Positions 20,132 through 21,210 are shown, counted from the first letter of the stretch. The stretch: DNA of 21,210 nucleotides from a virus (IMGVR_UViG_2579778535_000007); one strand, 5' to 3'. A program made the numbers and translations. The notes: a model not told the origin generated them from the letters alone.

Positions 20132-20169
20132 GTTTAATATTACAATATTATCTGGGAGATAAATGCATC

Positions 20170-20805
20170 TTATTTTCCAGATAATAACTGATGTTTTGCA
20201 TATTCACGTGGCGTGCAATTATAATATTTCCTGAACAGGCACACAAAGTACGATGTACTACTAAAGCCACAGCTTTCTGATACTTGTTTGACTGGATGAT
20301 TTTGCTTTAGTAATTTAATAGCAAAAGCCATCCGTGTATCAAGTAATAACTTACTGAAGGAGGTGTTTTCCAATAATAGTTTTTTCTTTATTAAGCTTTC
20401 ACTCATGTAGAGATAATCGGTTAGGTCTCTTAGTTTCCAGTGTTTAGATACATCTGAAAGAAATATGCTGCGCACTTTCCCTGAGAAAGTAGGCATACCA
20501 GACGTAAGAAAAGAACTAAGGTTGTCAATATCACTAAAAATTGAAAGTAATGAAAAAGTTAAAGCATCCTTAAAATCAGGATGTATATGATTCTTGTCAC
20601 TTATATTATCGATCATCCTGATTAATAAATCAGGATAAGCAAAAGACTTTTTTAGTAAATGTGGGCATTTATCCAGAAGTTGCTTCCCTTGGTGATTGTA
20701 ACAAGACAAATAGTTTCTTACGGCACTATCATTAAATTCGAATTCGATATATTTATCTGAATAGGTTTGTAAGAATTCGCGTTCAGAATGTTTAAGCAAC
20801 AGCAC
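20170..20805 (-). CDS. AraC-family transcriptional regulator, AppY/EnvY/GadX-like (211 aa, GTG start)
   Basis: C-terminal AraC-type double HTH (WKLRDLTDYLYMSESLIKKKL…DTRMAFAIKLL…CGFSSTSYFVCLFRKYYNCTPREY) closely resembles AppY as I recall it. Low GC, with an AT-rich upstream region at 20806-21100. Confidence 0.75.
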   Translation of the reverse strand: MLLLKHSEREFLQTYSDKYIEFEFNDSAVRNYLSCYNHQGKQLLDKCPHLLKKSFAYPDLLIRMIDNISDKNHIHPDFKDALTFSLLSIFSDIDNLSSFLTSGMPTFSGKVRSIFLSDVSKHWKLRDLTDYLYMSESLIKKKLLLENTSFSKLLLDTRMAFAIKLLKQNHPVKQVSESCGFSSTSYFVCLFRKYYNCTPREYAKHQLLSGK

Positions 20806-21210
20806 ATCACCATAATTTAATATTAAGAAATCCTTAAGAAATTGAAAATTTATCGGTTTCTTTATAAGGATGAAGTAACAGACTCATAGCTACCACCATT
20901 CTAAAGAGACTTTGAACAAGAATAGAGATACAGCAGCACTGAAATCAAGAAGTTGTGCAAAAAATAAAAAATATTGATTTGTGTCACAATTGCTACTTTT
21001 TATTATTGAATTTTTATCAATTTCACTATAGATAAATAAATTGACATAGTGTGTAACCCCTGTAAATATAAAGGGCACTTTATCTGCTAAAGCCAACCAA
21101 TTTAAAATTAGAGGGTGGGAGCATGGAGGTTATCTACATAGTAGAACCGGCACTGTTGCAAATAGTCGGTGGTGATAAACTTATCATCCCCTTTTGCTGA
21201 TGGAGCTGCA

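Follow-up and report, generated by a model that had tools for sequence, protein, structure and literature searches.

The window analyzed here (21,210 nucleotides of the viral sequence IMGVR_UViG_2579778535_000007) raises the question of what follows the lxc gene of a P1-like element when the type III restriction-modification genes of P1 are absent. At position 20132, the sequence switches to AT-rich DNA with a gene for a putative AraC-family regulator. The original prediction placed the right boundary of the P1-like backbone at this switch and assumed a junction with an acquired island, whose AppY-like regulator might control acid stress or fimbrial genes. The features of the region are as follows.

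19446 to 19886, plus strand: Ulx-like, 146-aa ORF of the P1 backbone, syntenic with the annotated ulx of P1, P7, and others
19883 to 20131, plus strand: lxc, C1 repressor modulator, 82-aa ORF; final gene of the P1 backbone and left flank of RD-1
20135 to 20150, no strand: AT-only palindrome TAATATT-ac-AATATTA, within the 38-bp gap that separates lxc from the regulator gene
20146 to 20186, no strand: imperfect inverted repeat with 17-nt arms (88% complementary) and a 7-nt loop, spanning the regulator stop codon
20170 to 20887, minus strand: gene for a YdeO/AppY-type AraC-family regulator, probable pseudogene, assigned by Pfam HTH_18 and HTH_AraC and by alignment to intact 240-aa relatives
20888 to 21122, no strand: divergent intergenic region of 235 bp, about 31% GC, presumably with both promoters
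21123 to 21148, plus strand: start of an EAL-domain gene, 26 nt from the ATG (8 codons plus 2 nt), then IS26; the codons read MEVIYIVE, which is followed by P in relatives
21149 to 21210, plus strand: left end of IS26, 62 of 62 nt identical to annotated IS26

Analysis of the base composition revealed a GC content of 0.489 for positions 1 to 20131 and of 0.319 for positions 20132 to 21148, the most AT-rich kilobase of the window. The lowest value of any other stretch of this length in the window was 0.375, and the steepest drop in GC between left and right was centered at about 20090. The abrupt switch was thus confirmed. The segment is AT-rich relative to its surroundings, as is expected of an H-NS-silenced island, and silencing by H-NS is plausible from composition alone.

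The window runs in the orientation opposite that of the P1 reference, with darB followed by ulx and lxc, and its lxc gene shares 95% nucleotide identity with lxc of P1 and P7. Homology to P1, P7, RCS47, SJ46, and JL22 breaks off at positions 20127 to 20131, which is the end of lxc. Past the lxc stop codon, P1 continues into mod and res and then into mat on the opposite strand. The AT-rich DNA that takes the place of mod and res in the window is accessory and looks acquired, as had been proposed. The regulator gene is absent from P1, P7, RCS47, SJ46, and JL22 and is not a part of the backbone conserved in all relatives.

A variable hotspot between lxc and mat of P1-like phage-plasmids has been described as RD-1 (PMC6906374, PMC10865808). 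Venturini et al. assigned res-mod as RD-1 of P1, a low-G+C hotspot linked to a boundary of average-G+C and AT-rich DNA, and for pJIE250-3 listed "2 orfs including putative transcriptional regulator" in place of res-mod (PMC6906374). Comparison of the slot between lxc and mat revealed type III mod/res genes in P1 and P7, a RelA/SpoT-family gene in SJ46 and vB_EcoM-673R5, and an unrelated 316-aa ORF in JL22; in RCS47, the slot is empty and mat directly follows lxc. A pair of genes for an AraC-like and an EAL protein occupies the slot in pEA24_3 (an Escherichia albertii plasmid), OP279344 (a phage P1 isolate labelled "del res del mod"), vB_EcoM-Ro157c2YLVW, and E. coli S56 plasmid A, and in these four carriers the pair is followed by mat, ref, c8, and cre. 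In all slot variants, divergence sets in directly past the lxc stop codon; on the other side, the alignment with P1 resumes within the 3' end of mat. These results indicate that the AT-rich switch lies at an accessory slot within the backbone, the lxc-mat hotspot published as RD-1.

The alternative that the backbone ends here, at a junction with an island carrying a working, H-NS-silenced AppY-like regulator of acid stress or fimbrial genes, would agree with the stop of P1 homology at lxc, with the low GC content of the adjoining kilobase, and with the interruption of the P1 sequence by IS26 about 1 kb further on in this lineage. In addition, non-P1 DNA with an autotransporter gene is present past IS26 in the sister contig ERR1512503. 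However, in every finished relative examined, the cassette measures about 1.9 kb and is followed by the backbone, beginning with mat, and the notion of a backbone boundary thus appears largely refuted by synteny. The mat flank itself is not reached in the window because the sequence ends in IS26 first. The junction in the window is located at 21149, where IS26 begins, and not at the AT-rich switch; the original prediction had overlooked it.

The RD-1 cassette is not confined to the window. Searches revealed 124 PLSDB records that cover at least 80% of positions 19880 to 21210, and the cassette was found in 106 of 5,426 complete E. coli genomes and in six IMG/VR viral contigs. The overlapping coordinates of PLSDB record NZ_MN510445.1 (78,164 bp), which is taken to be pJIE250-3, matched at 95.8% identity. 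The cargo of the window is the two-ORF variant of the pJIE250-3 type, with nothing outside the known kinds. Only two details are new, both described below, namely, the site of the IS26 insertion and a 5-bp deletion specific to the lineage, and the variation of the cassette is ordinary mobile-element variation of a kind already described.

The AT-rich DNA of the cassette is struck repeatedly by insertion sequences across carriers. An IS3 element is located in the intergenic region of the cassette of an Escherichia fergusonii plasmid, IS5-family and IS903B elements are present in the cassette DNA of other carriers, and p16EC-p0111 carries IS26, a class 1 integron, and oqxB just beyond the EAL gene.

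The predicted palindrome TAATATT-ac-AATATTA exists in the gap between the convergent genes, but four bases to the left of the position first given for it (20139 to 20154). It is identical in both cassette-bearing relatives that were aligned over 20135 to 20150 and is absent from P1, RCS47, SJ46, and JL22, compared at the end of lxc; the palindrome is part of the cassette and not of P1. Perfect inverted repeats with arms of 7 nt or more occur twice in the AT-rich segment, compared to a mean of 0.70 in dinucleotide shuffles, 18% of which reached two or more. The palindrome is not above chance and carries no weight. RNA folding of positions 20120 to 20180 yielded -11.1 kcal/mol on the plus strand (z = -1.38), and the z value for the minus strand of the palindrome region was +0.20. 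The imperfect repeat at 20146 to 20186 contains three G-C pairs and forms at most a weak hairpin. An intrinsic bidirectional terminator in the gap was considered and rejected on the basis of these fold values and of the lack of G+C pairs in the palindrome. G+C-rich hairpins after lxc are present in other RD-1 variants. No known RNA family was detected in positions 19800 to 21210 at E values up to 1.

As predicted, the regulator ORF of the window is on the minus strand and converges on lxc. Its C-terminal region carries the double helix-turn-helix of the AraC/XylS family, with matches to Pfam HTH_18 (E value of 1.4e-13; 51 bits at a cutoff of 33.6) and HTH_AraC (3.5e-9), and the intact relative scores likewise. 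In pEA24_3, the gene comprises 240 codons and encodes an N terminus (MSGVCYFILI) that matches the pattern of YdeO (MSLVCSVIFI) and AppY (MDYVCSVVFI). The NCBIfam YdeO equivalog profile NF007407 was matched with 155.2 bits, compared to a cutoff of 348, although the match was full length (protein residues 1 to 233, profile positions 1 to 232 of 253). The regulator shares 35% identity with K-12 YdeO over 233 residues. With AppY, residues 108 to 231 align at 41% identity over 125 residues, and no significant alignment was obtained between AppY and the N-terminal domain. The designation AppY-like is roughly right and can serve for the clade, but the protein is closer to YdeO. Judged from these comparisons, the regulator is an orthologue of neither protein, and YdeO-like is the more accurate description.

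The best matches among solved structures were Rns, CsvR, and GadX (E values of about 7e-20, residues 44 to 232), and the protein was assigned to the phage family phrog_1450. Regulator homologues with 34 to 59% identity are located in other AT-rich, IS-rich contexts. Their neighbors are genes for K88-type fimbriae (on F plasmids), yfdX, or a two-component system. No EAL gene was found beside these homologues, which thus do not support a conserved AraC-EAL module outside P1-like elements.

Alignment of the regulator gene with pEA24_3 and OP279344 revealed that 5 bp are missing just after the ATG in the window (ATG[TCAGG]AGTC). As a result, the ATG at 20885 to 20887 opens a dead-end frame of 17 codons, and the first canonical start codon in frame is a GTG at 20805, codon 30 of the intact gene. 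The 211-aa ORF listed for the window (20170 to 20805, 38 bp from lxc) starts at this GTG. In a tblastn comparison, residues 4 to 240 were recovered in one frame at 97% identity (237 of 240 residues aligned). The window thus does not contain an intact, translatable regulator gene, and the regulator is a probable pseudogene. Since the rest of the ORF is intact, the lesion at the start is recent.

An exact look-up of the product of the 211-aa ORF was performed in Logan and ENA contigs; six entries were read, and five of the contigs were retrieved. The 5-bp deletion was present in all five. The five contigs stem from different samples and were assembled independently, and their common gap therefore represents an allele that truly circulates rather than an error of assembly. 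Neither the deletion nor the IS26 junction was found in PLSDB or in the 5,426 complete E. coli genomes, and exact-pattern scans of species-representative genomes and JGI metagenomes also recovered neither of them.

It might be argued that the regulator is still functional, either as a protein truncated at the N terminus (211 aa) and translated from GTG 20805 or because the 5-bp gap is an artifact. The remaining ORF has no other lesion, a Shine-Dalgarno-like GGTGAT lies immediately ahead of the GTG, and the gene callers of public assemblies predict the same 211-aa product. However, the recurrence of the gap speaks against an artifact, and GGTGAT abuts the GTG without a spacer. Moreover, the 29 lost residues include the MSxVC..I.I pattern common to YdeO and AppY and correspond to the N-terminal domain in the alignment to Rns. 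The gene also decays independently elsewhere, as described below. A functional regulator in the window is therefore considered very unlikely.

Inspection of other carriers revealed that the regulator has been damaged in at least three separate ways, i.e., by the 5-bp deletion of the window, by a 1-bp deletion at nt 489 of the coding sequence in a common E. coli lineage, and, in OP279344, by an in-frame deletion of 21 bp within the first helix-turn-helix. The 1-bp allele is that of E. coli S56 plasmid A, whose regulator is annotated as "frameshifted" in RefSeq. Of 109 PLSDB carriers, at least 81 showed a match of 99% identity or better to this 1-bp frameshift allele. Three loci with the 1-bp allele were sampled, and their EAL proteins are 99 to 100% identical to the reference. 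An intact EAL gene beside a frameshifted regulator suggests that expression of EAL may not need the regulator or that the cassette is drifting.

These alleles also bear on the proposal of a working regulator of acid stress or fimbrial genes. The protein does fall within the YdeO/AppY/GadX clade, and a homologue with 59% identity adjoins K88-type fimbrial genes on F-type plasmids. Nevertheless, the start codon is out of frame in the window, most database copies are frameshifted, the YdeO profile score is far below its cutoff, the N-terminal domain is not alignable with AppY, and no target genes of the regulator are known. Together with the return of mat in the relatives, these observations make it highly unlikely that the segment is the end of the backbone with a working regulator of this kind. 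The data instead favor a decayed accessory cassette in RD-1.

In its intact form, the cassette encodes the 240-aa regulator, convergent with lxc, and divergently from it an EAL-only protein of 229 aa; the two genes are separated by a 235-bp spacer. The long AT-rich upstream region that had been attributed to the regulator is indeed AT-rich, but it is the 235-bp divergent intergenic region shared with the EAL gene. Blocks of this region are conserved between lineages that share about 88% identity, and a ribosome-binding site, GAGGGTGGG, precedes the EAL ATG at 21123. No strong sigma-70 consensus was found in the 235 bp. A TTGACA at about 21044 does not keep its spacing in the divergent lineage, and no convincing promoter or operator motif and no DNA-binding site for the regulator were identifiable in the region.

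The intact EAL protein of the relatives is a stand-alone EAL domain (Pfam EAL, 6.9e-18). Comparison with the active enzyme YahA/PdeL revealed that the EVLxR, ExxE, DDFGxG, KxDKSF, AEGVE, and QGY motifs and the N of INV are retained. The protein of the relatives thus keeps the full catalytic signature of active cyclic di-GMP (c-di-GMP) phosphodiesterases and would be predicted to be active. It is intact in 10 of 11 other loci sampled, at 87 to 100% identity (99 to 100% in eight); the sole exception is Ro157c2YLVW. No relatives of the EAL protein were found in the genome contig collection. The literature searched contained nothing relevant on the function of the AraC-like/EAL cassette or of EAL domains in phage-plasmids.

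In the window, homology to the EAL gene stops at 21148, after 26 nt. The bases from 21149 read GGCACTGTTGCAAATAGTCGG... and begin with the 14-bp terminal inverted repeat of IS26, GGCACTGTTGCAAA, at 21149 to 21162. A complete IS26 element (IS6 family) comprises 820 bp with the transposase gene tnp26 and generates an 8-bp target duplication. The tnp26 gene presumably starts 2 nt past the end of the window. In ERR1512503, the sequence reads on past the point where the window ends as CATGAACCCATTC, and an IS26 transposase coding sequence follows the same sequence in both p16EC-p0111 and ERR1512503 (234 aa in the latter). If IS26 was inserted at 21149 in a simple event, an 8-bp duplication of GTAGAACC is expected. 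Short-read contigs are expected to break off at repeated insertion sequences, and the end of the window 62 nt into IS26 fits this expectation.

The contigs retrieved with the 211-aa product support this picture. In ERR4843236, SRR29490216, ERZ27280463, and ERZ28618673, which are short-read or metagenome assemblies, the 5-bp deletion is combined with the identical IS26 junction, and the contigs likewise end inside IS26. ERR1512503 also carries the 5-bp deletion, and here IS26 abuts the EAL stump 18 bp deeper. Past IS26, this contig continues with an IS3-type fragment and then with a gene for a 1,165-aa autotransporter, which is 93.5 to 98.5% identical to genes of E. coli plasmids, including pAPEC-O1. 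Hence, there is at least one sister element in which IS26 links the P1-like DNA to DNA of an unrelated plasmid type.

With little doubt, positions 20132 to 21148 represent the leftmost kilobase of a cargo cassette in RD-1 that is AT-rich and comprises two genes, both of which are disrupted. The 5-bp deletion puts the start of the regulator out of frame, and IS26 interrupts the EAL gene behind its nt 26. Since both genes are disrupted, any phenotype of the cassette would be lost in the window. It is accordingly considered very likely that the regulator is a recent pseudogene, that the EAL gene is destroyed, and that the cassette phenotype is lost.

For intact copies of the cassette, a functional model can be put forward tentatively. 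The regulator might bind the shared AT-rich intergenic DNA and activate or derepress the EAL gene, possibly also its own gene. The EAL protein might then lower the c-di-GMP level of the lysogen by hydrolysis, and the outcome would be a lysogenic-conversion trait that affects motility and biofilm formation. The action of the regulator on the EAL gene is proposed because Rns, ToxT, and GadX act in this way at AT-rich promoters. Overall, this chain from the regulator via EAL to c-di-GMP is possible, with somewhat less than an even chance of being correct. The main evidence against it comes from the carriers, most of which have retained the EAL gene next to a frameshifted regulator.

A more specific version, in which a YdeO-like regulator of the intact relatives switches on an active YdiV/STM1697-like EAL protein and thereby changes c-di-GMP, motility, and biofilm formation of the host, or in which the pair serves as an exclusion module, is regarded as unlikely. 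Both the reprogramming of c-di-GMP and exclusion are inapplicable to the window, in which both genes are disrupted.

A related proposal is that the cassette is an unrecognized module for antiphage defense or exclusion because RD-1 otherwise holds defense genes. The slot of P1 and P7 contains type III restriction-modification genes, and in SJ46, the RelA/SpoT-family gene of the slot gave a match to the PADLOC candidate PDC-S33 at 7e-87; the occupant of JL22 matches PDC-S34 weakly (1.4e-11). In contrast, no PADLOC model was matched by either of the cassette proteins. The location of the cassette is the sole argument for a defense role, and the regulator is a pseudogene in most carriers, with both genes disrupted in the window. 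A defense module is therefore extremely improbable. Positions 20132 to 21148 are better described as the remnant of the regulator/EAL cassette.

The locus represents a documented hotspot of P1-like elements in a decayed state and has little weight for biology at large; the wider interest lies in the role of the AraC-like/EAL pair in intact elements. The IS26 end explains why the window sequence stops at this point, and IS26 at 21149 flags a likely link to non-P1 DNA. The combination of the 5-bp deletion and the IS26 junction provides a specific marker of a lineage that is present in at least four public samples.

Among the systems described so far, RD-1 of pJIE250-3 is a close counterpart and resembles the window in the lxc flank, the low G+C content, and the presence of two ORFs. 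Unlike the pJIE250-3 type, the copy in the window carries a 5-bp deletion at the regulator start and an IS26 element inside the EAL gene.

YdeO and AppY of E. coli K-12 are AraC-family regulators of acid resistance and anaerobic genes, and appY is located within the cryptic prophage DLP12. The regulator of the cassette resembles them in size class, in the N-terminal MSxVC, and in the double helix-turn-helix, and like appY, its gene rides on AT-rich phage DNA. In contrast to YdeO and AppY, it adjoins an EAL gene, is broken in the window, and has no known targets. Virulence regulators of the Rns/CsvR/ToxT type usually operate at AT-rich promoters repressed by H-NS. They match best among solved structures, yet their identity to the cassette regulator is low. 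No fimbrial or toxin genes adjoin the regulator in P1-like elements.

For the EAL protein, the nearest solved structures are STM1697 (8e-28) and YdiV/CdgR (4e-19). STM1697 and YdiV (RflP) are EAL-like proteins of Salmonella and E. coli that bind FlhD4C2, and the catalytic motifs have been lost in both. The EAL protein of the relatives shares these motifs with YahA/PdeL instead, whereas the window retains only codons 1 to 8 of the gene.

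Analysis of the slot between lxc and mat revealed occupants that match candidate defence models of PADLOC (PDC-S33 and PDC-S34) in two relatives:

SJ46 (L007), 6290-7411: RelA/SpoT-family protein, PDC-S33, 7e-87
JL22 (L010), 5314-6264: gp7, PDC-S34, 1.4e-11

Because of these matches, the lxc-mat slot looks like a hotspot for defence genes. A fitness interaction between the relA-like gene of this slot and blaTEM-116 is on record (PMC10865808).

The AT-rich cassette that holds the AraC-like regulator gene and the EAL-domain gene is repeatedly hit or abutted by insertion sequences in the relatives. 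Besides the arrangements listed here, IS5-family and IS903B elements were found at the cassette of further relatives.

E. fergusonii plasmid (L028), 38050-39212: IS3 in the cassette intergenic region
p16EC-p0111 (L004), 8296-14294: IS26, a class 1 integron (dfrA17) and oqxB shortly past the EAL gene
Sister contig ERR1512503_34 (L029), 262-5233: IS26 and non-P1 DNA

The sister contig ERR1512503_34 shares the 5-bp regulator deletion of the window, and its IS26 sits 18 bp deeper in the EAL stump. This IS26 is followed by an IS3-type fragment and a gene for a 1,165-amino-acid autotransporter, which is also present on E. coli plasmids, including pAPEC-O1. The shifted IS26 and the DNA beyond it therefore suggest an IS26-mediated adjacent deletion or a cointegrate.

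Among finished plasmids, E. fergusonii RHB44-C03 unnamed3 is nearest to the window, and relative to it the window lacks approximately 10 kb at about 12102-12111; in that plasmid the missing DNA includes ddrA and the ompC-like, ssb, and lysozyme genes. Many plasmids match positions 1-12111, and their match breaks off there. The deletion brings the gene annotated as "bleomycin hydrolase" up against the head-processing gene, and the element in the window is therefore probably a defective prophage. ORF calling and alignment to P1 DarB located a second loss:

Window, 14639-19412: darB with an internal deletion, junction near 19116-19126

Relative to P1 DarB, about 2 kb was lost out of frame. P1 DarB aligns over residues 1-1509 in one frame and picks up again over residues 2158-2255 in a different frame, so that the ORF stops at 1495 amino acids; an identical 1495-amino-acid product was called in contig ERR4843236. 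The backbone also contains AT-rich patches at 3800-4400 (GC about 0.35) and 8800-9400 (GC about 0.40), which may represent other published RD hotspots, and two small blocks (2875-2981 and 9602-10239) that do not align to the E. fergusonii plasmid.

One record carrying the cassette, OP279344, has the title "Escherichia phage P1 isolate del res del mod" and was submitted as a P1 phage without these two genes; here the AraC-like/EAL cassette replaces both genes, and the first helix-turn-helix of the regulator has a 21-bp in-frame deletion.

OP279344 (L002), 7291-8916: AraC-like/EAL cassette
Cassette carrier L001, 4631-5320, and equivalents in other loci: EAL gene

The EAL protein was 99 to 100% identical in 8 of the 11 other loci sampled, among them all three loci with a frameshifted regulator. 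It retains every catalytic motif found in active phosphodiesterases, even though STM1697 and YdiV, the closest homologues with a solved structure, are degenerate.
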